Source of the DNA: Candidatus Poribacteria bacterium
Lineage (GTDB): Bacteria; Poribacteria; WGA-4E; WGA-3G
NCBI GenBank assembly: GCA_965220325.1
Contig: OZ244821.1
Coordinates: forward strand, 3,037,924 to 3,101,923
Length of the DNA: 64,000 bases
Direction: 5' to 3'
Part shown: one piece after another, positions 2,402 to 51,600 of the stretch
How the letters are laid out: each line of letters starts with the position of its first letter
Numbering within the stretch: position 1 is the first letter of the stretch
The notes under the pieces: model-generated
What the model saw: only the letters and a program-made list of their open reading frames with translations
Told to the model about the DNA's origin: nothing
The model's database searches: none
Translations under genes and position numbers: made by a program

Positions 2402-2408
2402 TTACGGA

Positions 2409-5213
2409 TTAACGTTCCAAACGAAGCACACCACGATGCTCAGTGCCAACGTAAAAGGCATCTCTATCAACAACGAGAGACGTTATGGCACTTGGAATTT
2501 CAGGCACAATTTGTTCCCAAGTCCTTGTTTCCTTTGCTAAGTGATAGATGCCGTCGTCATTCGCGCCATAAACAGTGTCCTCTGTTGTTGCTAACGCCTT
2601 AATGATGGTGCTTTCTCCCGCGTTATCGGTGATTGCATTCCAAACAACGCCATCTTTTGAACTGAAAACGCCTTTGTCGGTTGCGACCTGAACCGTTGCG
2701 TCAGCAAAGACAATTTGATTGAAGCGTTCAACAGACAACGACAGATGTGGTGTAATGTCGTTCCAACTATCCCCACCATCAAGCGATTGGAAGAGCTGTC
2801 CGTCCCGTTTACCGACATAGACGGTCTCTCCTGAAACCGCAATTTTAAAACGTTGTGCCATGTTTTCACGTGTGAGTTCACAAGTCTCTTCAACGCCTGT
2901 ATCCGACCATCTTACGTCACCCGGATTCCATCGGAAGAGTTTATAGTTGTACTCCATGTAATACGTTTCGCCACTGATGGCGAAGCTGCCGTATAAACCC
3001 TCCAACATCAATGCGTAAGTGAGTTGACCATCGCCTTGTTCTCGACCCAACAATTTTAGAAAGCATTCTGCACCAAATCTCGGATTCTCGCGTATTGTCT
3101 GGGTTGATAAAGACTCAGAATTAACGTCTGGATCATCTGTAGAGCGGGTAAAGGTCATTTGGCCCTCTTGTCTCGGTAGCCGATAAGAATCAAAGGGGAA
3201 TGTCACTCCCTTGAACACCGTCCACATGAGACTTCCTGAATCTCGCGGAGGTGGTGTCTTTCCCTCTTCAAAAATATAACCCTCAACAGGCTCTAAACAA
3301 TTTTTATCTGGTACGAGATGATAATAAGCCGTCTCACAATTACGTCGAATTCCTTTTGCATACAGAACACCGTCGGCTTCGGAAATCTGTACAATTAGCG
3401 GCGTGTCTTCCCTATCTTTGAGTTTCGCATTGAACTTTGGTATTTCAAGCGTATACCTTGGTCGTAGGATGTCAACAGCAGTCCACGAGCTGCCTGCGTC
3501 TGTTGATTTGACGACACCCCCCGCAACCGTCGCGTACAAAGCCTTAGCTGCTTCTGAATTTGGACGCGTCTCTTCTAAACTGATTAAGTTATCCACGTGG
3601 CACTCAAACCTTGTATTGAATCGGTGCCAGGTTTCACCGCCGTCCCTTGAGCGATGGATGCCAGTGATGCCCCCTGTATAAAAGGTGTTTTCGTCTAAAG
3701 CGACAGCAGCGTTCACACTAAAAATCATGGGTGTAATGCCGGAGGATTCTGTGGAACGCCAAGTGTCTCCACAGTCTGTTGAGCGAGCCACAACGCCTTC
3801 CTCTCCACCTATCAGTAAGACGGTTTTTCCAGAGGCGACCAGTTTAATCGGCGGCAACGTTTTCATTAGAAGATTCCGGGCATCCGTGGGCGTTACATCT
3901 GTCCAAGAGTCGCCGCCATCGGTTGATCGGAAGACCCACCACGAATCCTTACGCATATCACACAAATTGTGGTAATTTTCACTTGGCGTTCCGTCCCCTT
4001 CAAATATATTTACTTCTACGGCGACATAGATAGTGTCTTCAGATACCACCAAAGAACGCACGACCACAGTATTGTCCACCGGCAACTGTAGGTGTTCCCA
4101 CGTTCCCGCGTTAAGACGGTAGATTCCGAGAGAGGTTCCGGCAAATAGCGTATCTCCGCTCAATTGTAGTGTATAAATTCCCGATTTCTGTGTGAAGCGG
4201 CTGTCTAAACCGTCATTCATGTTTTGCCATGAATTTCCTGCGTCATCAGATCGGAAAATACCTTTATTAAGGGTAACGTAAAAAGCATCTTCGGTAATCA
4301 GCAATTCCCTCACGTGTCCGTTTGGACAAGGACCGATAGCATTCCAAGTTTTGCCGTCATCGGTTGATGCGAACAACGTATCGGATGGAATTATATAAAG
4401 CGTGCCATCGTGTTCAGCAATAGGGATATCGCCTGCGGTCCCTTGACGCAAAAAATCGGTGTTGACAAGTTGCCATTCATTTTCACGCGCAGGCAATTTG
4501 TAAATGTTCTCATAACCCATCACTGCGTAGAGTGACCCATCCGAAGTTTTCGTTAGTGTCCCGACTGGTGCCGCCACGCCGGGTTCATTCATCTGAATCC
4601 ATTTCATAACATCCTCCATGATATCATCTGATACTTGGGAACTGCCCAAAGCTTCGCGAACGACAGGGGTCTCTTTTTGCAATCGTTTCCGGGCGCGGTG
4701 GAGTCGGCTCTTGATCGTGTTCGGCGACATCTCCAGAAAATCACCGATTTCTTCGCAACTCATCTCACTGAGATAGTGAAGTGCTACGACTGTCCGTTCG
4801 CGCTCCGTTAGTTTTTGCAGGAGGTATTCAACGATCTCGCGTTGCTTATCTGTTGCCGAGTTTTCGGTCTGTTCTGTCAGATATTGGGTGTAGAACAGTG
4901 CCTCTATCTCTGCTGTATCCATCGCCTCCAAAGATTGCATCGGGATTCTTTTCTCCGCAAGCCATGCGAGGGAACAGCGGGTAGCAATCATATAAAGCCA
5001 CCCTGAAAACCGGTTTGGGTCTCTCAGCGTTCCGAGTTTTTGGTAGGCTTTAAGGAAAGCGTCCTGCGTAATTTCTTCAGCGATTTGGTAATCTCTTACC
5101 CGGCGCCATAGGAATGCGTGTATCTGCTTCTCGTATTTTCTCACGAGTGCGGTGAAGGCACTTTCATCGCCTGCTAAGATACGTTCAACCCATTTCGCGT
5201 CGTCGTTTTTCAT
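2409..5213 (-). CDS. ECF (sigma-70 family) sigma factor fused to a C-terminal BNR/Asp-box beta-propeller domain
   Basis: 934 aa. The N-terminal 190 aa carry sigma70 region 2 (DAFLKAYQKLGTLRDPNRFSGWLYMIA) and region 4 (ERERTVVALHYLSEMSCEEIGDFLEMSPNTIKSRLHRARKRL). The remainder carries at least 8 S/T-x-D-x-G-x-T/S-W Asp-box motifs (STDDGKTW, SDDAGNSW, STDGGDSW, STDCGDTW, SRDGGETW, STDAGSSW, SLDGGDSW). No TM segment is apparent. The RBS GGAGGA precedes the ATG. Confidence 0.8.
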   Translation of the reverse strand: MKNDDAKWVERILAGDESAFTALVRKYEKQIHAFLWRRVRDYQIAEEITQDAFLKAYQKLGTLRDPNRFSGWLYMIATRCSLAWLAEKRIPMQSLEAMDTAEIEALFYTQYLTEQTENSATDKQREIVEYLLQKLTERERTVVALHYLSEMSCEEIGDFLEMSPNTIKSRLHRARKRLQKETPVVREALGSSQVSDDIMEDVMKWIQMNEPGVAAPVGTLTKTSDGSLYAVMGYENIYKLPARENEWQLVNTDFLRQGTAGDIPIAEHDGTLYIIPSDTLFASTDDGKTWNAIGPCPNGHVRELLITEDAFYVTLNKGIFRSDDAGNSWQNMNDGLDSRFTQKSGIYTLQLSGDTLFAGTSLGIYRLNAGTWEHLQLPVDNTVVVRSLVVSEDTIYVAVEVNIFEGDGTPSENYHNLCDMRKDSWWVFRSTDGGDSWTDVTPTDARNLLMKTLPPIKLVASGKTVLLIGGEEGVVARSTDCGDTWRSTESSGITPMIFSVNAAVALDENTFYTGGITGIHRSRDGGETWHRFNTRFECHVDNLISLEETRPNSEAAKALYATVAGGVVKSTDAGSSWTAVDILRPRYTLEIPKFNAKLKDREDTPLIVQISEADGVLYAKGIRRNCETAYYHLVPDKNCLEPVEGYIFEEGKTPPPRDSGSLMWTVFKGVTFPFDSYRLPRQEGQMTFTRSTDDPDVNSESLSTQTIRENPRFGAECFLKLLGREQGDGQLTYALMLEGLYGSFAISGETYYMEYNYKLFRWNPGDVRWSDTGVEETCELTRENMAQRFKIAVSGETVYVGKRDGQLFQSLDGGDSWNDITPHLSLSVERFNQIVFADATVQVATDKGVFSSKDGVVWNAITDNAGESTIIKALATTEDTVYGANDDGIYHLAKETRTWEQIVPEIPSAITSLVVDRDAFYVGTEHRGVLRLER

Positions 5214-5675
5214 GCGGATCCTCCAATCAACAATATTGACTTGTGATATGTGACAGGTATTATAGGGTGGTCGGTTGCAAATTCGTAATTTTGCGTCTAA
5301 ATACTCGATATTTGCGCAATTTGCGTCCGTCCTGATTAAATTATTTGCTTTTTTTCTAAAAATATCTTATAATATCAGTCAGATACAGTCTTTAATAATT
5401 TAATTATTGAAATTAAAAATTAAATTGACCGATTGTAACCCATTGGCGTGCCCGTTTGAAAAAGCGTCGCACAGTCAGTTTTTTCAACCCCAAAACCGAA
5501 TGTCTGAGAATAAAAATGCCAAGTAGATGCCTCAATACTAATATTACCAGATTGACTTTCCCCGCGCCCCGACTTGACAGTGTGTGTGGTGAGAGTGTGC
5601 ACTGCTGCTCAGGATATTCGTTGCTTCTGTGTATTATTAACTCAGAGTTAACTGTGTCATCTGCACGGTTAACAG

Positions 5676-5687
5676 CCCCCCCCCCCC
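5676..5687. repeat. Homopolymeric C12 tract in the divergent intergenic region, about 195 bp upstream of the giant adhesin gene
   Basis: 12 consecutive C residues counted in the sequence. Confidence 0.9.
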
Positions 5688-5747
5688 GCTTAACAATTAA
5701 TAAGTATTGTATTTTACAAAATAGTACAGCCTTCAAGGATGTCCTCT

Positions 5748-5800
5748 CTTTAGTCATGCCCGCGCGCGTTTCGTCTTGCACGGAACGTTTCGTCGCGGGC
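5748..5800 (+). promoter_or_regulatory. GC-rich hairpin (GCCCGCG...CGCGGGC, with an internal CGTTTCGTC direct repeat) followed by TGTTTTTATT. It is a terminator- or attenuator-like element in the leader of the giant gene.
   Basis: The inverted repeat and T-run were read from the sequence. It lies about 80 bp upstream of the TTG start at 5881. Confidence 0.35.
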
Positions 5801-5880
5801 TGTTTTTATTGCATTCGGCTTTTCTGAATGCGTCTTATCGCTACCACTTTCTATTGAATACCGATAAAGGAGTTTAGACC

Positions 5881-8800
5881 TTGCTATTGACAAACAAAAA
5901 ATGTATCGTATCAATTTTCCTAACCACTTTTATAGTTTTTTTAACACATATATCCGGTTACGCAGATATAACCCCTGTCCAGGATCGCACACCACAGATC
6001 CGGGATGCGATTGTTGCCGCAGTGCCAGGTGTTAACAGTGCCAACGATGTCACCGCAGCACACCTCGCAGCCATTGCAACCCTGGAGGCTTCCAATAAGT
6101 CAATCAGTGCTTTGAAAGCTGGAGATTTCGATGGCCTCACCGCGCTGACAACGCTCGATCTGTCTCGCAATACCATCAGCGATATATCTCTGCTTGGGAG
6201 CTTGACTGCACTGACGGCACTCGAACTGTCTCAGAATGCCATCACTGATATATCTGTTCTTAAGAAATTGACGAAACTCAGATGGCTCTTTCTATCTCAT
6301 AATGCCATCAGCGATATATCTCCGCTTAAGAACTTGACTGCACTGAAACATCTCTGGCTCGGTGGCAATGCCATCAAAGATATATCTGCGCTTGAGAAAT
6401 TGACGAAATTGAAAAAACTCTGGTTGTCTCGCAATGCTATCAGTGATATATCTGTGCTTGAGAAATTGACACCACTGACAGCACTCTGGCTGGATGGTAA
6501 TGCTATCAGCGATGTATCTGCGCTTGAAGGTCTAATCTCGTTAGTGAGTTTAAATCTCAGTGGCAATCCGATTTCGGATTACGGTCCGCTGCGTAGACTC
6601 AAAACCGCCAATCCGGATATAACCATTGATATTGATATTGATGAGAATGATAATAGCGCGCCTGTATTCACCGCTGGCAGTAGCACGACGCGGTCTGTTG
6701 CGGAGAACACGGCTTCCGGCACAAACATCGGCAGTGCGGTATCCGCGACAGATACCGATAATGATACCTTAACCTATACGCTGGGGGGTACGGATGCGGC
6801 TTCGTTTCGTATTGTTTCGACCTCGGGACAACTCCGAACCAATGCTGCACTGGATTATGAAACGAAATCGTCCTACTCCGTGACTGTCTCCGTTTCTGAT
6901 AGTAATGGTGGCAGCGATAGCATTCCTGTCACGATCAGTGTGACGAACGTCAACGAAGCACCTAACTTCGCCAGCAGCACCGCGACGCGTTCGATAGCAG
7001 AGAACACGGCATCTGGTACAAATATCGGGACTGCTATTACTGCGACAGATGTGGATACCGGCGATACACCAACCTATACACTGGGTGGCACGGATGCGAG
7101 TTCGTTTAGCATCGTCAGCACATCCGGTCAACTCCGAACCAACGCTGCATTGAATTATGAAACGAAATCGTCCTATTCCGTGACGGTCACTGCCAGGGAT
7201 GCGGGTAACCTCTCGGATACGATCAGTGTCACAATCAGCATCACAGATGTCAACGAGGCACCCAACTTCGCAAGCAGCACAGCGACGCGTTCGATAGCAG
7301 AGAACACGGCATCGGGACAAAACATCGGAGCTGCTGTGGCAGCGACAGATGTTGATGGCGACACCCTCTCCTATACGCTCGGTGGCACGGATGCGAGTTC
7401 GTTCAGTATCGTCAGCACATCCGGTCAACTCCGAACGAGTGCGGCTTTGGACCGTGAAACAAAAGCCTCCTACTCCGTGACAGTCACTGCCTCCGATGGG
7501 AGTCTATCGGATACGACCACCGTCACGATCAGTGTGACCAACGTCAACGAAGCACCTAACTTCGCAAGCAGCACAGCAACACGGTCCATAGCAGAAAACA
7601 CCGCCTCCGGTCAAAACATCGGCACCGCTCTCACTGCGACAGACCCAGATGGCGATACACTCTCCTATACGCTGGGTGGCACGGATGCGAGTTCGTTTAG
7701 CATTGTGTCCAATTCCGGTCAACTCCGAACGAGTGCGGCTTTGGACCGTGAAACAAAAGCCTCCTATTCCGTGACAGTCACTGCCTCCGATGGGAGTCTG
7801 TCGGATACGACCACTGTCACGATCAATGTGACGAACGTCAACGAAGCACCTGTATTCACAGAAGGTAGCACAGCGACGCGTTCGATAGCGGAGAACACGA
7901 CTTCCGGCACAAACATCGGAGCTGCTGTGGCAGCGACAGATGTCGATGGTGATACCCTCTCCTATACACTCGGTGGCACGGATGCGAGTTCGTTTAGCAT
8001 CGTCAGCACGTCTGGTCAACTCCGAACCAGTGCGGCTTTGGACCGTGAAACAAAAGCCTCCTACTCTGTGACAGTCACTGCCTCCGATGGGAGTCTGTCG
8101 GATACGACCACTGTCACGATCAATGTGACGAACGTCAACGAGGCACCCACTTTCGCAACTACCACAGCAACGCGCTCGGTCGCAGAGAACACGGCAGCCA
8201 ATCAAAACATCGGCGCAGCTTTCACCGCAACGGATGTCGATAGTGGGACTACGCTCACCTATTCGATCCCTACAACCGGGGATGCCGCAGCCTTCAGCAT
8301 CGTCAGCAATACAGGGCAACTGAAAACAAAGAATACCCTGAACTATGAAGTTAAAAACGCCTATACGGTTGTTGTGACGGCTTCCGATGGAAGTTTGACC
8401 GATACGATCACCGTCACGATCAGTGTCACAAACGTCAATGAGACACCGACGTTTGCTACCGGAACAACCATCAGTAGTATTTCTGCCACCAAAGGAACGG
8501 CAATCACCTCCGTGACCTTGCCAGCAGCAACGGACCCTGACGCGAACACTACTATCACATACACGGTGACACCGACACTCCCCGCCGGGTTGACATTTAC
8601 GCCTTCAACGCGTATCCTCTCAGGCACACCTACGGCTGTGTCGGCTTCAGCGACTTATACCTATACGGCGAGTGATAGCAACCTTTCAGACACTTTGACG
8701 TTCACAATTCAAGTGAACGCGCCTGCTAACAACGCACCGACGTTCACGGATGGCACCAGCACGACGCGCTCGGTCGCAGAGAACACCGCTTCAGGGCAAA

Positions 8801-11800
8801 ACATCGGCAGTGCCGTCGGCGCAACCGATACGGATAACGACACGCTCAGCTATACCCTCGGTGGCACCGATGCCGCATCTTTCAGTATCGTCAGCACGAC
8901 AGGACAACTCCAAACCAACACTGCCCTAAATTACGAAAGCAAGTCGTCTTATTCTGTGTCAGTGTCTGTCTCTGATAACAACGGCGGCAGCGATAGTATC
9001 GCTGTCACGATCAATGTGACGAACGTCAATGAGGCACCAAGTTTCGCAAGCACCACTGCGACACGTTCGATAGCAGAGAACACCGCAGCCAACACAAATA
9101 TCGGCGCGGCTGTTGCTGCGACAGATGTCGATGGCAACACCCTCTCCTATACACTGGGTGGCACGGACGCAAGCTCATTTAGCATCGTCAGCACGTCTGG
9201 TCAACTCCGAACCAGTGCAGCCCTGGACCGTGAAACAAAAGCCTCCTATTCCGTGACGGTCACTGCCTCCGATGGCAGCCTGTCGGATACGACCACCGTC
9301 ACAATCAATGTGACGAACGTCAACGAAGCACCTAACTTCGCGAGCAGCACCGCAACACGCTCCATAGCAGAGAACACCGCCTCCGGTCAAAACATCGGCA
9401 CTGCCGTTGCGGCGACAGACCCAGATGGCAACACCCTCTCCTATACACTGGGTGGCACGGATGCGAGTTCATTTAGCATCGTCAGCACGTCTGGTCAACT
9501 CCGAACCAGTGCTGCTTTGGACCGTGAAACAAAAGCCTCCTATTCTGTGACAGTCACTGCCTCCGATGGGAGTCTATCGGATACGATCACCGTCACGATC
9601 AATGTGACGAACGTCAACGAGGCACCTAACTTCGCAAGCACCACAGCAACACGCTCTATAGCGGAGAACACGGTTTCCGGTCGAAACATCGGGACTGCCG
9701 TCGCCGCAACGGATGTTGACCATACTTCACTTACCTATACGCTGGGTGGCACGGATGCGAGTTCGTTTAGCATCGTCAGCACGTCCGGTCAACTCCGAAC
9801 CAGTGCAGCCCTGGACCGTGAAACAAAAGCCTCCTATTCTGTGACAGTCACTGCCAGGGATGCGGGTAACCTCTCAGATACGATCACCGTCACGATCAAT
9901 GTGACGAACGTCAACGAGGCACCAAGTTTCGCAAGCACCACAGCAACACGCTCCATAGCGGAGAACACGGTTTCCGGTCGAAACATCGGGACTGCCGTCG
10001 CCGCAACGGATGTTGACCATACTTCACTCACCTATACTTTGGGTGGTACGGATGCGAGTTCGTTTAGCATCGTCAGCACGTCTGGTCAACTGCGAACCAG
10101 TGCGGCTTTGGACCGTGAAACAAAAGCCTCCTACTCTGTGACAGTCACTGCCAGGGATGCGGGTAACCTCTCGGATACGATCACTGTCACGATCAATGTG
10201 ACGAACGTCAACGAGGCACCAAGTTTCGCAAGCACCACTGCGACGCGCTCTATAGCAGAGAACACGGTTTCTGGTCGAAACATCGGGACTGCCGTCGCCG
10301 CAACGGATGTTGACCATACTTCACTCACCTATAGTCTTGGTGGCACGGATGCGAGTTCATTTAGCATCGTCAGCACGTCTGGTCAACTGCGAACCAGTGC
10401 TGCTTTGGACCGTGAAACAAAAGCCTCCTACTCTGTGACAGTCACTGCCAGGGATGCGGGTAACCTCTCGGATACGATCACCGTCACAATCAATGTGACG
10501 AACGTCAACGAGGCACCGAGTTTCGCAAGCACCACAGCAACACGCTCCATAGCGGAGAACACGGTTTCCGGTCGAAACATCGGCACTGCTGTATCTGCGA
10601 CAGATGTTGATGGCAACACGCTCACCTATAGTCTCGGTGGCACGGATGCGAGTTCGTTCAGTATCGTCAGCACATCGGGTCAACTCCGAACGAGTGCAGC
10701 TTTGGACCGTGAAACAAAAGCCTCATATTCTGTGACAGTCACTGCCAGGGATGCGGGTAACCTCTCGGATACGATCACCGTCACGATCAATGTGACAAAC
10801 GTCAATGAGGCACCAAGTTTCGCAACTACCACCGCGACGCGCTCGGTCGCAGAGAACACGGCAACCAATCAAAACATCGGCACAGCTCTCACCGCAACGG
10901 ATGTCGATAGTGGCACCACGCTCACCTATTCGATAGCGACAACCGGGGATGCCGCAGCCTTCAGCATCGTCAGCAATACAGGGCAACTGAAAACAAAGAA
11001 TACCCTGAACTATGAAGTTAAAAACGCCTATACGGTCGTTGTGACGGCTTCCGATGGAAGTTTGACCGATACGATCACCGTCACAATCAGTGTGACAAAC
11101 GTCAATGAGGCACCCACTTTCGCAACTACCACCGCGACGCGCTCGGTCGCAGAGAACACGGCAACCAATCAAAACATTGGCACGGCTCTCACCGCAACGG
11201 ATGTTGATAGTGGCACCACGCTCACCTATTCGATCCCGACAACCGGGGATGCCGCAGCCTTCAGCATCGTCAGCAATACAGGGCAACTGAAAACAAAGAA
11301 TGCCTTGAACCATGAAACAAAAGCCTCCTATACGGTCATTGTGACGGCTTCCGACGGAACTTTGTCAGATACCATCACCGTCACGATCAGTGTCACAAAC
11401 GTCAACGAAGCACCGAGTTTCAGCACTTCGGGGAGGGTCACGCTCTCCGTCGCAGAGAACACGGCAGCCAACACCAACATCGGCACCCCCTTCCAGGCAA
11501 CAGACCCCGATAGTGGGGATACAGTGACCTATTCGCTGCAGCGAGCCGATAAGACCTCGTTCCGTATTGACGCAAATACGGGGCAGCTGAAAACCCACGC
11601 GGCACTTGACTATGAAACGAAAAATTCTTACAGCAATCTCGCCGTCCGCGCGGCTGATAGCGGGGGTCTCGTCAGTAGCGTCCTTGTCACTGTCAACGTT
11701 ACAAATGTCAATGATAATTCCCCCGTGTTCACGGAGGGTGCCAGCACGACGCGGTCTATCGCAGAGAACACGGATTTCGGCACAAACATCGGAACTCCGG

Positions 11801-14778
11801 TCGCTGCGACGGATGCCGATAATGATACCCTCAGCTATACACTGGGCGGCACGAATGCATCCTCATTTTACATTATTGGCACATCCGGGCAGCTGAGAAC
11901 AGGCTCCGTCGCCTTGGATTATGAAACGAAATCGTCCTATTCGGTCACGGTCAACGTTTCTGATGGCAACGGTGGGAGTGATAGTATCGCTGTCACCATC
12001 AACGTTACAGATGTTGATGAATCGCCTGCAAACAGCGCACCGACCTTCACGGATGGCACCAGTACCACACGCACTGTTGCGGAGAACACCGCTTTAGGCA
12101 CCTACGTCGGAAGTGCGGTTGCTGCGACCGTTGCGAATAACGCCACACTCACCTATACGCTGAGTGGCGCGGATGCGGCCTCGTTTAGCATTGGCAGTGC
12201 CTCCGGGCAGATCCAAACAAATGCTGCCATGGATTATGAAGTCAAGAATTCCTACACCGTCACGGTTGACGTTTCTGGTAGCAATGGCGGGAGTGACAGT
12301 ATCACCGTCACCATCAATGTTACAGATGAAGCCGAATCCCCGATAGCACCGCCGCTCAGTGACCGCACGCCACAAGTGCGCGCTGCGATTGTTGCTGCAG
12401 CACCAGGCGTTAGCAATGTTGCTGATGTGACCGTAGCACACCTCGCAGCGATTGCCTCCCTGAATTTGTCGAATAGGTCAATCCGTTCTCTAAAAACTGG
12501 GGATTTCAATGGACTCACCGGAATGGGAGCACTCGATCTGCATCTCAACTCGATCAGTGATATATCTGCCCTGAGTGGATTGACCCAACTGAGACATCTT
12601 GATCTGGGCTTCAATTCGATCAGTGATATATCTGCCCTGAGTGGCATGACCTCAATGGTCAATCTCAGTCTGCTTAACAATTCGATCAGTGATATATCTG
12701 CCCTGAGTGGCATGACTTTGATGACAAGTCTCGGTCTGTCTAACAATTCGATCAGTGATATATCTGCCCTGAGTGGCATGACCTTGATAGACACTCTCAA
12801 TCTAACGAACAATAACGTTACGGATGTATCTGCCCTGAGTGGCATGACCTCGCTATTCATCTTATCTGTCGCAGGGAATCCGATTTCGGATTATGGTCCC
12901 CTCCGGACCCTCAAGGCAGCAAATCCGAATGCCCGCCTTGATATTAGCCTTAATAACAACCCACCCGTCTTCACTGAAGGCACCAGTGCCACGCGGTCTA
13001 TTGCAGAGAATACGGCATCTGGCACAAACATAGGCACTGCGGTTGCTGCGACCGATGCGGATAACCATACCCTTAGATATAGTTTGGGTGGCACGGATGC
13101 GGCTTCGTTCAGCATTGTCAGCACATCAGGACAGCTCCGCACAAATGCTGCCCTGGATTATGAAACGAAGTCCTCTTATGCTGTAACAATCACCGTTTCT
13201 GATGGAAATAACGGGGGTGATAGTATCAGCGTCACCATCAATGTTACAGATGTAGTTGAGCATGACCCCGTGTTCACGGATGGCGACACCACGACGCGGT
13301 CTGTTGCGGAGAACTCCGGTAGAGGCACCAACGTCGGAACTCCGGTGGCTGCGACCGATGCGAATACCGGCGACACACTCACCTATACGCTCGGTGGCAC
13401 CGATGCCGCATCGTTTAGCATTGTCTCCACATCCGGGCAGCTCCGAACCAATGCTACTCTGGATTATGAAACCAAGAGCTCCTACACTGTCACGGTTGAC
13501 GTTTCTGACGGTACTGGCGGGAGTGACAGTATCACCGTCACCATCAATGTTACAGATGTCGAGGAATCCACGATAACACCTGTAAAGGATCGCACGACGC
13601 AGGTACGGGATGCGATTGTTGCTGCGGTGTCAGGCGTTAGCAATGCTGACGATGTGACCGAAGCACACCTCGCAGCGATTACAGAATTGAATCTCGGATC
13701 AAAGTCAATCACTACGCTGAAGGCTGGCGATTTCAGTGGACTCACCGGACTCGAAACGCTCTATCTGGACAGCGAGTCGCCCAGTGATACACATAAAAAT
13801 TCGATCAGTGATATATCACCCCTTGAAGGCTTGACTACCCTGACAAGGCTCAATCTGCTTTACAATTCGGTCAGCGATATATCTGCGCTGAGTGGCATGA
13901 CTTCAATGAGCCAGCTTAATCTGGATAACAATTCGGTCAGTGATATATCTGCCTTGAGTGGCATGACTTCAATGACCATTCTCAGTATGAAGAACAATAA
14001 CGTTACGGATGTATCTCCCCTGAGTGGCATGACCACGATGTTCATCTTATCTGTCGCAGGGAATCCGATTTCAGATTACGCTACCCTCCGGACACTCCAG
14101 GCACATTCGCTTTGGGTACTTGATATTAGTCTTAATAACAACCCACCGACGTTCACCGATGGTGCCACCACCACGCGCTCGGTCGCCGAGAACACGGCAG
14201 CGGGACAAAACATCGGCAGTGCAGTCTCTGCGACGGATGCGAATAACCATACGCTCACCTATAGTCTCGGTGGCACGGATGCGGATTCGTTTAGCATCGT
14301 TTCCACCTCCGGGCAGCTCCAAACCAAAGCAGCACTCGACTATGAAACGAAGAACAGCTATACGGTAACAGTGACTGCTTATGACGGCAATAACGGTGGG
14401 GACAGAATCACCGTCACGATCAATGTCACCGACGTAGCAGCTGCTGCACCGGTTGTGCTAACACCGCCAGCACCCGTGCTGCCGAACACAACCGAGTTGC
14501 TGACAAACTTCCCGAACCCGTTCAACCCGGAGACGTGGATACCGTATCAGCTCGCCAAACCGGCAGATGTGACGCTAACCATCTACGATATCCGCGGTCG
14601 TATCGTGCGGACGTTGCGATTAGGGCACCAACCTGCAGGTTTCTACCAGAATCGGAGCAAGGCAGCGCATTGGGATGGACGAAATCATCTCGGTGAAAAG
14701 GTCGCCACAGGCGTGTATTTCTACACCCTCAAAGCCGGCGATTACATGGCAACCCGCAAGCTCTTGATACGGAAATAG
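5881..14778 (+). CDS. Giant secreted surface protein (2965 aa): signal peptide, 3 leucine-rich-repeat modules, about 25 cadherin-like repeats, C-terminal T9SS-type (Por_Secre_tail-like) sorting domain
   Basis: TTG start 8 nt after AAGGAG. The N-terminus is hydrophobic. LxxLxLxxNxISDIS 22-residue LRRs occur at aa 70-230 and again near nt 12360-12960 and 13560-14130. Each LRR module opens with DRTPQIRDAIVAAxPGV. There are about 100-aa repeats ending in NVTNVNEAP with TDVDGD calcium-binding-like motifs. The C-terminus GVYFYTLKAGDYMATRKLLIRK matches the T9SS C-terminal domain pattern. Confidence 0.9.
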   Translation: MLLTNKKCIVSIFLTTFIVFLTHISGYADITPVQDRTPQIRDAIVAAVPGVNSANDVTAAHLAAIATLEASNKSISALKAGDFDGLTALTTLDLSRNTISDISLLGSLTALTALELSQNAITDISVLKKLTKLRWLFLSHNAISDISPLKNLTALKHLWLGGNAIKDISALEKLTKLKKLWLSRNAISDISVLEKLTPLTALWLDGNAISDVSALEGLISLVSLNLSGNPISDYGPLRRLKTANPDITIDIDIDENDNSAPVFTAGSSTTRSVAENTASGTNIGSAVSATDTDNDTLTYTLGGTDAASFRIVSTSGQLRTNAALDYETKSSYSVTVSVSDSNGGSDSIPVTISVTNVNEAPNFASSTATRSIAENTASGTNIGTAITATDVDTGDTPTYTLGGTDASSFSIVSTSGQLRTNAALNYETKSSYSVTVTARDAGNLSDTISVTISITDVNEAPNFASSTATRSIAENTASGQNIGAAVAATDVDGDTLSYTLGGTDASSFSIVSTSGQLRTSAALDRETKASYSVTVTASDGSLSDTTTVTISVTNVNEAPNFASSTATRSIAENTASGQNIGTALTATDPDGDTLSYTLGGTDASSFSIVSNSGQLRTSAALDRETKASYSVTVTASDGSLSDTTTVTINVTNVNEAPVFTEGSTATRSIAENTTSGTNIGAAVAATDVDGDTLSYTLGGTDASSFSIVSTSGQLRTSAALDRETKASYSVTVTASDGSLSDTTTVTINVTNVNEAPTFATTTATRSVAENTAANQNIGAAFTATDVDSGTTLTYSIPTTGDAAAFSIVSNTGQLKTKNTLNYEVKNAYTVVVTASDGSLTDTITVTISVTNVNETPTFATGTTISSISATKGTAITSVTLPAATDPDANTTITYTVTPTLPAGLTFTPSTRILSGTPTAVSASATYTYTASDSNLSDTLTFTIQVNAPANNAPTFTDGTSTTRSVAENTASGQNIGSAVGATDTDNDTLSYTLGGTDAASFSIVSTTGQLQTNTALNYESKSSYSVSVSVSDNNGGSDSIAVTINVTNVNEAPSFASTTATRSIAENTAANTNIGAAVAATDVDGNTLSYTLGGTDASSFSIVSTSGQLRTSAALDRETKASYSVTVTASDGSLSDTTTVTINVTNVNEAPNFASSTATRSIAENTASGQNIGTAVAATDPDGNTLSYTLGGTDASSFSIVSTSGQLRTSAALDRETKASYSVTVTASDGSLSDTITVTINVTNVNEAPNFASTTATRSIAENTVSGRNIGTAVAATDVDHTSLTYTLGGTDASSFSIVSTSGQLRTSAALDRETKASYSVTVTARDAGNLSDTITVTINVTNVNEAPSFASTTATRSIAENTVSGRNIGTAVAATDVDHTSLTYTLGGTDASSFSIVSTSGQLRTSAALDRETKASYSVTVTARDAGNLSDTITVTINVTNVNEAPSFASTTATRSIAENTVSGRNIGTAVAATDVDHTSLTYSLGGTDASSFSIVSTSGQLRTSAALDRETKASYSVTVTARDAGNLSDTITVTINVTNVNEAPSFASTTATRSIAENTVSGRNIGTAVSATDVDGNTLTYSLGGTDASSFSIVSTSGQLRTSAALDRETKASYSVTVTARDAGNLSDTITVTINVTNVNEAPSFATTTATRSVAENTATNQNIGTALTATDVDSGTTLTYSIATTGDAAAFSIVSNTGQLKTKNTLNYEVKNAYTVVVTASDGSLTDTITVTISVTNVNEAPTFATTTATRSVAENTATNQNIGTALTATDVDSGTTLTYSIPTTGDAAAFSIVSNTGQLKTKNALNHETKASYTVIVTASDGTLSDTITVTISVTNVNEAPSFSTSGRVTLSVAENTAANTNIGTPFQATDPDSGDTVTYSLQRADKTSFRIDANTGQLKTHAALDYETKNSYSNLAVRAADSGGLVSSVLVTVNVTNVNDNSPVFTEGASTTRSIAENTDFGTNIGTPVAATDADNDTLSYTLGGTNASSFYIIGTSGQLRTGSVALDYETKSSYSVTVNVSDGNGGSDSIAVTINVTDVDESPANSAPTFTDGTSTTRTVAENTALGTYVGSAVAATVANNATLTYTLSGADAASFSIGSASGQIQTNAAMDYEVKNSYTVTVDVSGSNGGSDSITVTINVTDEAESPIAPPLSDRTPQVRAAIVAAAPGVSNVADVTVAHLAAIASLNLSNRSIRSLKTGDFNGLTGMGALDLHLNSISDISALSGLTQLRHLDLGFNSISDISALSGMTSMVNLSLLNNSISDISALSGMTLMTSLGLSNNSISDISALSGMTLIDTLNLTNNNVTDVSALSGMTSLFILSVAGNPISDYGPLRTLKAANPNARLDISLNNNPPVFTEGTSATRSIAENTASGTNIGTAVAATDADNHTLRYSLGGTDAASFSIVSTSGQLRTNAALDYETKSSYAVTITVSDGNNGGDSISVTINVTDVVEHDPVFTDGDTTTRSVAENSGRGTNVGTPVAATDANTGDTLTYTLGGTDAASFSIVSTSGQLRTNATLDYETKSSYTVTVDVSDGTGGSDSITVTINVTDVEESTITPVKDRTTQVRDAIVAAVSGVSNADDVTEAHLAAITELNLGSKSITTLKAGDFSGLTGLETLYLDSESPSDTHKNSISDISPLEGLTTLTRLNLLYNSVSDISALSGMTSMSQLNLDNNSVSDISALSGMTSMTILSMKNNNVTDVSPLSGMTTMFILSVAGNPISDYATLRTLQAHSLWVLDISLNNNPPTFTDGATTTRSVAENTAAGQNIGSAVSATDANNHTLTYSLGGTDADSFSIVSTSGQLQTKAALDYETKNSYTVTVTAYDGNNGGDRITVTINVTDVAAAAPVVLTPPAPVLPNTTELLTNFPNPFNPETWIPYQLAKPADVTLTIYDIRGRIVRTLRLGHQPAGFYQNRSKAAHWDGRNHLGEKVATGVYFYTLKAGDYMATRKLLIRK

Positions 14779-14788
14779 TTGTCAGTTA

Positions 14789-15084
14789 TTGTAAAGCCCG
14801 AAAATAGGTTGACATTTACCAAATCTCCAGATTCCCCCCTGATAAGGGGGGTTAGGGGGGTTCTACCGATTAAGGTGTCCAATTAATTATGGATTTCACT
14901 ATAAGAGGGAAACTTATCAATTACATTTCCCTCTTATTGTAAAGCCCGAAAATAGGTTGACCTTTACCGAATCTCCAGATTCCCCCCTGATAAGGGGGGT
15001 TAGGGGGGTTCTACCGATTAAGGTGTCCAATTAATTATGGATTTCACTATAAGAGGGAAACTTATCAGTCACATTTCCCTCTTA
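14789..15084. repeat. Two tandem copies of a 156-bp unit. Each contains CCCCCCTGATAAGGGGGGTTAGGGGGG and a 10-bp-stem hairpin AAGAGGGAAA-N16-TTTCCCTCTT.
   Basis: Read from the sequence immediately 3' of the giant gene stop. The copies differ at about 4 positions. They are related to the repeat at 2261-2401 by the C5-TGATAA-G5-TTAGGGGG core. Confidence 0.85.
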
Positions 15085-15375
15085 ACCGAAATGAAGATTA
15101 ATTTATTGCAGGCGGGGTGTTTTGCTGGGGTGTTTCTTCCAGTATCCCCGCCGAATTTTTGTGCTGTCCTTTTCACAACTCCTAAAACTTAATATATATT
15201 ACCTAAAATATGTATATAATTAAAACAATTCTCTAAAATTTTCGCAGCATTTCGCTAGATTTCGCAGCATTTCGCTACCAGAACGCTATGTTTTCCGAGA
15301 AATCTCATCTAACAGAACAGGCTACATTTACAACGGTAGAAAGGACAGTTTTTCTCGGAAAGCAAAAATAGATGA

Positions 15376-15404
15376 TTGACAAAATGGCGATGGTGTGTGA
15401 TAAT
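15376..15404 (+). promoter_or_regulatory. Sigma70-type promoter with extended -10: TTGACA-17 bp-(TGt)GATAAT
   Basis: -35 TTGACA at 15376-15381, 17-nt spacer, TG at 15396-15397, GATAAT at 15399-15404. It lies about 65 nt upstream of the ATG at 15472. Confidence 0.6.
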
Positions 15405-15471
15405 GCTATTGCTGAAAAGGATTTATATGCTGTGTGTACCTGAGAATCGGACATATAACAGGGGGGAACAG

Positions 15472-17214
15472 ATGGCTAACGAACTGATGACGAACGAAGA
15501 GAATTACGCTTTTGATGTGGCGGGCTACCTACACATTCCGGGCGTTCTCAGTCAGGAAGAGGTAGCAGCACTCAACGAGGCATTAGACGCATTTGGTGAG
15601 AGTGAAACGCTGTTAGGCGGCGACAGTCCACACCGCGAATTGTTCCGCGATTTACTGGTACATCCGACATTGGTGTGGTATTTGAACCAGATCATCGGAC
15701 ACGGCTTCCGACTCGATCAGGCACCCCGATTGTTGGGACAGCGAGAAGGTGAAACCGGTCTAACACTCACTGGCGGCGATGAACCGAGAAACCCGTCCTT
15801 AGCATACCGCATACAAAAGGATAGGAGAAGCTGCCAAGGCGTGAAAGCGGTCTGGGCGTTGGACGACATCACAGAAGACGATGGTGGACTCGTCGTTGTT
15901 CAGGCGAGCCATAAGAGTAATGTCGAGACACCGAACGACTTGGCAACCGGCGTTGACGATATGGACGTAGTCGTGCATCCGGAACTCAAGGCAGGTGATC
16001 TATTCTTGGTTGCGGTACCTACGCTCCAAGGCGTTCGTCCGTGGAAAGACGAGCCGAAAAGGTTGTTGAGCTACTGGTACGCCGCGCGTGCAGCAATCCA
16101 ATCGAATCCAGTTGGACCTTACTCGGAAACCGCATCTCTGCCGGGATGGGCAGATGAAGCGACACCTGCGCAAAGGGCGGTCCTGTATGTCCCCGGTTAT
16201 AAGGGTTCAAGTCCACCACCGGTGATAGATACAGACGGCGAAGAGACATGGGTGGAAGAAGATTCGTCTGTTGTTCATCCGTCAATTTATATGCGCGACC
16301 CGAATTCAGGCATCGATGAGAAAGAGTTTTACTTTTGGGATCTAAATGGGTATCTCGTGGTGCGCGGTGTGATGGATGAGCAGTGGTTGGCAGAGGCAAA
16401 TGAAGCGGTGGATAAATTCCAAGATCGCATCGTTGTCGGCAGTGAACTGGCGGGTGGATCGGTCAGCCAAGCCGGTACAGGTCGTCCCCTCCTATCGGGG
16501 CTGTTAAGCCTACCCGACCCTTATAACGAACCCTTCCGACGCATGATTGCGCACCCTACTGTGGTGCAGCGACTCAACTGGATGGGCGGTAGCGGCTATC
16601 GCACGGGTGGCGCGACTGTATTCTGTGCGGTTGAAGGCACGTCAGGGCACTCACTCCACGACGGCAATGAACCGATGAGTCCATCACGGGGTTATGATTT
16701 CAAAAATGGACGCAGCTATGCTGAGACCGTCACGATTACCTGGCAATTGCGCGATGTCGAACCTGGGCTCGGCGGTTTCGCCTGTGTACCCGGTTCCCAC
16801 AAGACGCAGTACTCGATGCCACGCGGCATTCGGACGTGTGATGATACGATGGGGTTAGTGGTACAACCGGTTATGAAAGCCGGGGACGTGCTTTTCTTTA
16901 TGGACGGCGGTTGCACACACGGTGCCTTGGCGTGGAAGAATCCGATCCCCAGACGTGGGGTCCTGATTAAGTATCAGTCGAAAAATGTCAATTGGGGCGG
17001 CGGTGTGATTGATCCTCAGGACCGGTGGGGCGATATGGTCGAAGATATGACCGAGGAACAATTCGCTGTCATGCGTGGACCCGAACGCGACGGTCGCCAC
17101 CGGACTGTACCGAGACTGGTTGTGGAAGACGGAGAGGTGTTCGTTTCCTACGATCCTGAAGGCGATAGTTATGCCTCAAAGCATCGCCGCAAACCGGGTG
17201 AAAAACGAGGGTAA
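15472..17214 (+). CDS. Tandem-domain phytanoyl-CoA dioxygenase (PhyH) family protein (two PhyH-like halves)
   Basis: ATG at 15472 is preceded by GGGGGGAACAG. The N-terminal half starts MANELMTNEENYAFDVAGYLHIPGVLSQEEV. The second half restarts with EKEFYFWDLNGYLVVRGVMDEQW and has a conserved His (CVPGSHK). The ORF track's longer start at 15376 overlaps the promoter and was not used. Confidence 0.65.
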   Translation: MANELMTNEENYAFDVAGYLHIPGVLSQEEVAALNEALDAFGESETLLGGDSPHRELFRDLLVHPTLVWYLNQIIGHGFRLDQAPRLLGQREGETGLTLTGGDEPRNPSLAYRIQKDRRSCQGVKAVWALDDITEDDGGLVVVQASHKSNVETPNDLATGVDDMDVVVHPELKAGDLFLVAVPTLQGVRPWKDEPKRLLSYWYAARAAIQSNPVGPYSETASLPGWADEATPAQRAVLYVPGYKGSSPPPVIDTDGEETWVEEDSSVVHPSIYMRDPNSGIDEKEFYFWDLNGYLVVRGVMDEQWLAEANEAVDKFQDRIVVGSELAGGSVSQAGTGRPLLSGLLSLPDPYNEPFRRMIAHPTVVQRLNWMGGSGYRTGGATVFCAVEGTSGHSLHDGNEPMSPSRGYDFKNGRSYAETVTITWQLRDVEPGLGGFACVPGSHKTQYSMPRGIRTCDDTMGLVVQPVMKAGDVLFFMDGGCTHGALAWKNPIPRRGVLIKYQSKNVNWGGGVIDPQDRWGDMVEDMTEEQFAVMRGPERDGRHRTVPRLVVEDGEVFVSYDPEGDSYASKHRRKPGEKRG

Positions 17215-48403: not shown

Positions 48404-48563
48404 AAAGTTTGTGCTCCTCTTTTGATGTTCGGAGTGTCCCGACCACAAATCGCCCATTAGCGAAAATGTGATTGATGTATTAATTGCATTAGACTTATCA
48501 GGGGCATTACAAGTTTAATCCGATTTCCGAACTACGGGTAAGTTGTGTAAGTCTTATTTAATT

Positions 48564-48592
48564 TGACAAAGGATCAAGATTAGGATATACTA
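48564..48592 (+). promoter_or_regulatory. Sigma70-type promoter for tRNA-Leu: TTGACA-17 bp-TATACT (an overlapping TATAAT follows)
   Basis: -35 TTGACA at 48564-48569 and -10 TATACT at 48587-48592. The tRNA starts at 48603. Confidence 0.55.
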
Positions 48593-51571: not shown

Positions 51572-51600
51572 TTGACATACGGGAAAAAATAGTGTATAAT
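51572..51600 (+). promoter_or_regulatory. Consensus sigma70 promoter TTGACA-17 bp-TATAAT driving the tRNA cluster
   Basis: -35 at 51572-51577, -10 at 51595-51600. A leader of about 95 nt precedes tRNA-Pro. Confidence 0.6.

Follow-up and report, generated by a model that had tools for sequence, protein, structure and literature searches.

A length-polymorphic poly-C tract in the conserved leader of giant cadherin/LRR genes of Poribacteria is a candidate contingency locus

Introduction

The closest described systems are homopolymeric tracts that accompany genes for surface proteins in well-studied bacteria. In Treponema pallidum, poly-G tracts lie upstream of the paralogous genes tprE, tprG, tprJ, tprF, tprI and tprL and of tp0126; these tracts are common to the subspecies, and their length varies within and between isolates (PMC7864442). 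In Bordetella, the C-stretch of fim2, fim3 and fimX (C7 to C19) belongs to the regulatory region of a set of paralogous genes for surface structures and has the fim box and an activator site at its flanks; its length determines how far the regulator site is from the core promoter and so alters the transcript level (PMC1891110). In Neisseria meningitidis, a poly-G tract in the promoter spacer of porA and a poly-C tract over the -35 element of opc cause graded transcription of the surface proteins (summarised in PMC7864442). Moreover, a variable homopolymer in the mRNA leader of Helicobacter pylori tlpB is targeted by the small RNA RepG, resulting in gradual post-transcriptional control (PMC8295292).

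The locus described here resembles the tpr genes in having a G/C homopolymer of ~7-12 nt at a conserved position upstream of paralogous, putative surface-protein genes. However, it belongs to a different phylum and concerns giant cadherin/LRR genes, and its tract probably lies ~300 nt past the promoter, in a long leader with a terminator-like hairpin, in contrast to the T. pallidum tracts, which are located just upstream of the mapped transcription start or between the -35 and -10 elements and have a measured effect on transcription. As in the Bordetella fim genes, a poly-C tract in the regulatory region of paralogous genes is flanked by a conserved motif, although the flanking motifs here are TTAAC direct repeats and the better promoter is far upstream. 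It shares with porA and opc a G/C homopolymer near surface-protein genes; compared to the established core-promoter position in Neisseria, the spacer-type promoter match at this locus is weak and not conserved. The tract also appears, judging from the putative promoter, to be transcribed in the leader like that of tlpB, which differs in being a G repeat read by a known C/U-rich small RNA at a single locus rather than across a large family. Altogether, the element is of a known kind, found in a new phylum, and its place within the leader is unusual.

A literature search found no report that connects phase variation or homopolymer switches to Poribacteria. These bacteria are uncultured but abundant symbionts of sponges, and a role in host contact is assumed for their giant cadherin/LRR "eukaryote-like" proteins. 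Here we analyse the tract in a 64-kb stretch of Poribacteria DNA (the window), together with its counterparts in other Poribacteria loci.

Results

A poly-C tract of exceptional length upstream of a giant gene

Twelve consecutive C residues are found exactly at the position given in the preliminary description, in the context GGTTAACAG-C12-GCTTAACAATTAA (right flank also read as GCTTAACAATTAATAAG), within the 667-bp divergent intergenic region between a sigma-factor fusion gene and the giant gene (Table 1). The TTG start of a 2965-aa protein claimed there is likewise confirmed, with a ribosome-binding site AAAGGAG at positions 5868-5874, and the tract ends 193 nt before this start codon, close to the earlier figure of 195 bp. 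The window has a G+C content of 48.7%, and C12 is its sole G/C run of more than eight bases, the other C runs reaching at most six (seven cases) and the longest G runs seven and eight. C-run counts drop about 5-fold with each added base (79 runs of C4, 17 of C5 and 7 of C6), and from this fall-off roughly 4e-4 runs of at least 12 C would be expected in 64 kb. The length of the tract is far above chance expectation. Other Poribacteria DNA (L001-L079, 1.04 Mb) has only two G/C runs of at least nine bases.

Two G tracts elsewhere were also recorded. In L005, a closed Poribacteria chromosome, a G11 tract (11773-11783) lies exactly where an IS1595-family transposase ORF meets the beginning of an N6_N4 DNA methyltransferase gene, possibly a second homopolymer switch that makes the methylase phase-variable. 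In L015, a G9 tract flanked by TTAACAA repeats (4413-4560; GCTTAACAAAAAGTTAACAAAT) adjoins an 80-N gap and lies between two long overlapping ORFs (3517-4524 and 4505-6595). It has GCTTAACAA in common with the flank of the window tract, which may be a coincidence or a scaffolding artefact.

Table 1. Features of the locus in window coordinates, and the tract in each leader copy
Feature	Position	Strand	Description
Sigma-BNR fusion gene	2409-5213	-	ECF-type sigma-70 factor fused to BNR/sortilin-like propeller
Block of ~10 kb without counterpart in the closest relative	5294-15358	.	Repeat element, leader, giant gene, 3' repeats
Promoter/leader cassette	5338-5880	+	Non-coding; accompanies giant cadherin/LRR genes
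P1	5345-5373	+	Sigma70-type promoter-like, TTGCTT-17 nt-TATAAT; putative transcription start near 5380
TTAAC array	5637-5694	+	Four direct motifs (5637, 5648, 5669, 5690); poly-C between third and fourth
Candidate P2	5669-5697	+	Weak promoter-like TTAACA-17-AACAAT, tract in spacer; 9 of 12 matches
Poly-C tract, window copy	5676-5687	+	C12
Terminator-like hairpin plus U-run	5758-5812	+	Intrinsic-terminator-like, candidate attenuator; fold of -25.5 kcal/mol
Second small conserved hairpin	5811-5832	+	GCAUUCGG...CUGAAUGC; folds
Giant secreted protein gene	5881-14778	+	2965 aa; cadherin/LRR/Big_9, FlgD_ig/Por_Secre_tail-type C-terminal domain (Pfam)
Tract, L093 copy			C12
Tract, L083 copy			C11
Tract, L084 copy			C11
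Tract, L091 copy			C11
Tract, L085 copy			C10
Tract, L092 copy			C9TT
Tract, L090 copy			C5T3C3

The giant gene and the history of the locus

The giant protein contains about 21 cadherin domains in addition to LRRs and Big_9 domains (Pfam), followed by a C-terminal domain of the T9SS type, and its ORF is 100% identical to the database protein P0121, which is encoded on a 6.11-Mb contig. It belongs to a family that is large in Poribacteria, with several paralogues per genome and 45-65% identity among its members. The 3' side of the gene carries a 148-nt unit in tandem duplicate (14786-15081; 97% identity), which contains CCCCCCTGATAAGGGGGGTTAGGGGGGTT and a hairpin AAGAGGGAAA...TTTCCCTCTT. The C6/G6 motif of this unit is also found in many Poribacteria loci (L015, L033, L041, L052, L066 and L069), and the hairpin follows the stop codon of the homologous giant genes in L083, L084 and L091. 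Further downstream, about four repeats of 10-nt units with TTTCGC in them (TTTCGCAGCA, TTTCGCTAGA, the last copy partial) occupy positions 15240-15277 in the intergenic region before a PhyH gene.

In L021, the closest genome available (93% identity of the sigma protein), the counterparts of window regions 2402-5293 and 15359-17207 are parted by ~320 bp of unrelated sequence; the segment between them, in which the tract and the giant gene lie, is thus present or absent depending on the strain. At 79 loci that are orthologous via the neighbouring sigma gene, the leader is absent, and conservation is limited to the ~120 nt adjoining the sigma gene (5214-5335); the tract thus belongs to the giant gene rather than to the sigma gene. 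In other relatives, quite another set of genes is found upstream of the sigma gene.

The region that precedes the sigma-BNR gene is a hot spot of variable content. Instead of the 10-kb block of the window, L021 has ~320 bp (5599-5921) with a MITE-like inverted repeat, whereas L080 carries SMC/AAA_21 and SLFN/AlbA_2 genes, L081 an NTP_transf_3 gene, and L082 a directly adjoining PhyH gene. The ~120-nt element by the sigma-BNR start is 80-94% conserved in many Poribacteria loci, in two or three copies per locus that seem to accompany extra sigma-BNR copies, which suggests a shared, possibly autoregulated, promoter region. The fusion protein itself, of 934 aa, combines a sigma factor with a beta-propeller in an unusual sigma-factor architecture; its homologues are named Candidatus Poribacteria. 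The gene is followed by ABC-2 permease genes (807-2213, - strand), and this sigma-fusion/permease module is tandemly repeated in relatives (L080-L082).

The tract is part of a conserved leader cassette

The promoter/leader cassette shares 77-84% identity with the sequences that precede homologous giant genes at unrelated loci of other Poribacteria. Eight DNA copies including that of the window were compared, taken from the loci of the family members with the most similar N-termini, plus one reached via a spurious leader ORF. A C-rich tract is present at the same aligned site in all of them, inside the most conserved block of the leader, and seven of the eight have at least nine Cs. Its length is not invariant among relatives (C9-C13 among paralogues). 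The MAG GCA_022827185.1 contains both the L083 copy with C11 and the L090 copy with C5T3C3, and one 6.07-Mb genome contains L085 with C10, L092 with C9TT and an ORF (P0280) decoded as C12; paralogues within a genome therefore differ.

Substitutions in the leader are evenly spread over the codon positions (27/53, 29/53 and 26/52) and the frame is not conserved past the tract, which marks the leader as non-coding. A small ORF or leader peptide spanning the tract was accordingly rejected, having no codon-position bias, a frame that is lost after the tract and no Pfam match. A DNA pattern scan of genome contigs for the tract flanks gave no match, and the 20-mer CTTAACAATTAATAAGTATT had four matches in metagenome contigs (L086-L089), all unrelated and due to chance, and none in viral contigs. 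A search by nhmmer with the leader profile over 1.25 Mb detected no further copies.

The tract varies across leader lineages and between near-identical leaders

Spurious ORFs called over the leader served as handles for a wider search. A profile built from two such ORFs retrieved 37 cluster representatives at 50% identity, corresponding to at least 37 divergent leader lineages. For the tract tally, the cluster representatives were combined with ORFs of the copies already fetched, giving 37 ORFs that span the site, a sample biased toward lengths that keep the frame open. Among these, 25 encode PPP or PPPP, corresponding to about C9-C13, three encode PP, and about nine are interrupted or decayed (PFP, PSP, PPH, PL). 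About two thirds of the leader lineages hold at least nine uninterrupted Cs, and about a third have an interrupted or shortened tract. Deduced from the reading frames, the distance between the TTAAC motifs on either side of the tract takes values of 13, 15, 18, 19, 20, 21 and 28 nt, compared to 21 nt in the window.

In the clustering at 90% identity, only two clusters contain more than one distinct sequence, and the members of both differ only at the tract. P0242 and P0243, from different assemblies, differ in nothing but 3 nt at the 3' border of the tract. P0249 and P0280, also from different assemblies, share 57 identical residues up to the end of the Pro run, exactly where they begin to diverge; decoded, this amounts to C11 versus C12 with one adjacent change in addition. 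These length differences, together with the differences confined to this one site in near-identical ORFs, constitute the comparative signature of a slipped-strand contingency locus. The proneness to slippage proposed in the preliminary description agrees with the differences among copies and near-identical ORF pairs. In the orthologous strain pair L083/L084, however, both tracts are C11 and the leader is 93.5% identical, so that the tract is not randomised in every strain pair.

This pair was assembled by different technologies, Illumina with MEGAHIT for L083 and HiFi-style reads with a hifiasm-style assembler for L084. Long-read assemblies can miscount homopolymers, and part of the tract-length differences could be such errors; the interrupted and the 3-nt variants cannot. 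The tract is shown to be non-random, conserved in position, pure C in most lineages and polymorphic in length. Between L083 and L084, the flanks are 98-99% identical, compared to 91-93.5% for the leader plus gene. The giant gene of this pair is only 82-93% identical, with rearranged internal repeats, which indicates that the adhesin gene diversifies much faster than its surroundings.

A conserved promoter lies far upstream of the tract

P1 is the only promoter-like element with both hexamers and their spacing invariant in the eight copies. TTGC(T/C)T, TATAAT and the 17-nt spacing are retained in all of them while the sequence of the spacer varies, a pattern that is the signature of a functional promoter. 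The tRNA operons of the window have a perfect TTGACA-17-TATAAT promoter (51572-51600) and a near-perfect TTGACA-17-TATACT promoter (48563-48591), and thus the canonical sigma-70 consensus applies in this organism of a candidate phylum. With P1 ~300 nt upstream, the tract and the hairpin are probably transcribed as parts of a ~500-nt leader, in which the tract would be near +297 and the hairpin near +379. Of the two locations offered in the preliminary description, promoter or leader, the conserved 5' leader fits the data, whereas a place in the main promoter is improbable.

A perfect 11-bp inverted repeat (ATTAAATTATT / AATAATTTAAT; 5335-5345 and 5394-5404) brackets P1, with 48 nt between its arms. 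It was set aside as the border of an invertible promoter, the segment being AT-rich and only 48 bp long and the repeat only partly conserved; it may be due to chance.

Candidate P2 has the tract in its spacer, which measures 17 nt in the window, L093, L083 and L084, and 16, 15, 15 and 14 nt in L090, L091, L092 and L085, respectively. Its -10 hexamer is not conserved in three of the eight copies, where it reads AATACA (L090), AATATT (L091) and AACTCT (L092). A promoter scan of the region yielded four sites against 2.3 expected. In addition, a GTATTRT motif is conserved 17-18 nt downstream of the tract.

TTAAC repeats flank the tract

The four TTAAC matches on the + strand fall within 58 nt, compared to about 0.05 expected from the window-wide density, and the motifs are conserved across the leader copies. 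Across the tract, the distance between the neighbouring motifs ranges from 13 to 28 nt outside the window. In L092, three motifs carry the same T-to-C change (GTCAAC, GTCAAT and CTCAAC), a post-hoc observation in a single copy; P0252 has such a change at one site only. Parallel changes of this kind would be expected if one factor reads the repeated motif. They also break a predicted RNA hairpin (5646-5673).

A terminator-like hairpin and an unpaired tract in the leader RNA

The hairpin had been placed at 5748-5800, 120 bp from the tract; its stem GCCCGCG...CGCGGGC instead spans 5758-5802, beginning 70 nt past the tract, and is followed by TGTTTTTATT (also given as UGUUUUUAUU) at 5803-5812. It combines a GC-rich stem with a directly adjoining U-run, as leader terminators do, its place between the transcription start and the start codon depending on the putative P1. 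A simple terminator scan missed it, presumably because the stem is interrupted (compound). All eight copies keep the hairpin, with folding energies from -17.6 to -28.4 kcal/mol, and six keep the U-run, which is weakened in L092 and lost in L093.

RNAalifold predicted the tract to be single-stranded between two hairpins, with minimal support from covariation (4/74 covarying pairs, covariation term +0.12). In folds of the full leader, the predicted probability that the tract is unpaired is 0.97 in the window and takes values of 0.73-0.99 where the tract is pure. Counting 80 nt from the tract start, there are 24 C versus 9 G in the window and 20-24 C versus 9-13 G in the other copies. The poly-C end (CCCGC) was also weighed as a pairing partner for the 3' arm of the terminator, an option that was discarded for lack of conservation of CCCGC, the G after the tract being A in L083, L084, L091 and L092. 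Known RNA families were ruled out for the leader by searches of Rfam 15, which returned two chance-level snoRNA matches (E of 4-7) for the window region and no match at the gathering score for four other leader loci.

Discussion

By comparative definition, the tract is a candidate contingency locus and a credible candidate for an expression switch of a familiar type. We propose that C12 is one instance of a family-wide poly-C tract prone to slipped-strand mispairing, in a promoter/leader cassette of ~540 bp that would have been duplicated and moved together with the giant cadherin/LRR genes. Transcription would most likely start from P1 and pass the tract ~70 nt before the hairpin. Replication slippage would shift the tract length by single bases and with it the spacing and phasing between the TTAAC sites, which may change how a factor binds or how the parts of an internal, activator-dependent promoter are placed to one another. 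The amount of transcription reaching the giant gene would change as a result, and each paralogue could go up or down independently. We assign a probability of about 0.5 to this reading, that slippage alters the TTAAC spacing and hence the transcription that reaches the giant gene; the transcription start, the binding factor and any effect on expression are what we infer from the sequence. In terms of gene context, a switch is favoured by the secreted giant adhesin-like family, the presence/absence of 10 kb and orthologues that diverge faster than their flanks. On the other side, the tract does not occupy the classical position relative to P1, L083 and L084 share C11, and the closest case of a leader homopolymer, H. 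pylori tlpB, acts through a small RNA and not by DNA spacing.

Several other explanations must be weighed against TTAAC spacing. In the main rival, the tract would be a fixed RNA signal rather than a switch, namely a single-stranded, C-rich landing site (Rho/rut-like, or for an RNA-binding protein or a G-rich small RNA) that governs attenuation ahead of the 9-kb gene and works at any length of ~9-13, so that the differences are slippage noise. Poly(C) is the strongest activator of Rho, and such a signal agrees with the conserved P1 upstream of a probably transcribed tract, the predicted unpaired state of the tract and the C-rich, G-poor 80 nt that follow, the conserved terminator-like hairpin downstream, the C11 common to L083 and L084, and interrupted tracts that mostly stay pyrimidine (C9TT and C5T3C3). 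A leader homopolymer read by a small RNA also has a precedent in H. pylori tlpB/RepG (PMC8295292). However, a rut site would be expected to be longer than twelve nucleotides, it is unusual for an intrinsic terminator to be combined with a Rho site, and no G-rich partner RNA is apparent in the window, whose G runs of at least seven (20579 and 36144) fall within long ORFs. Moreover, length tolerance leaves unexplained why a fragile pure homopolymer is retained over mixed C-rich sequence, and about a third of the lineages keep the leader without the run. We regard this fixed signal as possible but rather improbable. In a related proposal, length itself would matter at the RNA level: the poly-C would be a heritable "dimmer" in a previously undescribed leader/attenuator of ~500 nt, tuning by its length the loading of Rho, another C-binding factor or a small RNA upstream of the terminator, so that the giant adhesin genes are set independently. 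This idea is speculative, and we consider it unlikely.

A classical promoter-spacer switch of the porA/tp0126 type would use TTAACA (5669-5674) and AACAAT (5692-5697) at a distance of 17 nt, with the C tract as most of the spacer, C12 as the optimal ON state and shorter tracts turning the gene OFF; alternatively, the tract would lie over the -35 element, as in opc and fim, with TATTGT at 5705-5710 as the -10 element. The 9/12 match with the tract inside a 17-nt spacer, spacers of 14-17 nt giving the mix of ON-like and OFF-like paralogues that such a family would show, and the GTATTRT conserved downstream of the tract are consistent with it. Nevertheless, AACAAT is without the T at position 1 and varies among the copies, the match is no better than many chance ones, P1 with its perfect TATAAT is invariant, and only 40-90 nt would be transcribed before the terminator-like hairpin. 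The Bordetella study gave a low probability of promoter overlap to tracts at distances above 150 nt from the start codon (PMC1891110). A promoter-spacer switch is quite improbable on these grounds. Even less credible, and in our view very unlikely, is a tract without function, which would be either a slippage product that perpetuates itself and came down passively along with the duplicated leader, or an assembly artefact of homopolymer length. In favour of this, all copies derive from one ancestral leader and could have the tract by inheritance, the tract is interrupted or shortened in about a third of the lineages, and homopolymer miscounts are possible in long-read assemblies. Yet the leaders have diverged by 15-30% in nucleotides and most still keep at least nine uninterrupted Cs, in the most conserved block of the leader. 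As for an artefact, the Illumina and HiFi-style assemblies of L083 and L084 agree on C11, and the presence of the tract in eight independent assemblies or loci rules out a local one.

If the tract modulates these genes, as in the preferred reading of TTAAC spacing set by slippage, a mutualistic environmental symbiont would share with mucosal pathogens the stochastic variation of its surface, here across a giant-gene family. If the RNA "dimmer" were true, the outcome would be a combinatorial, phase-variable surface in an uncultured sponge symbiont. The leader, with its promoter, TTAAC repeats, poly-C tract and terminator, represents a well-defined new cis-regulatory element in a phylum without genetics.
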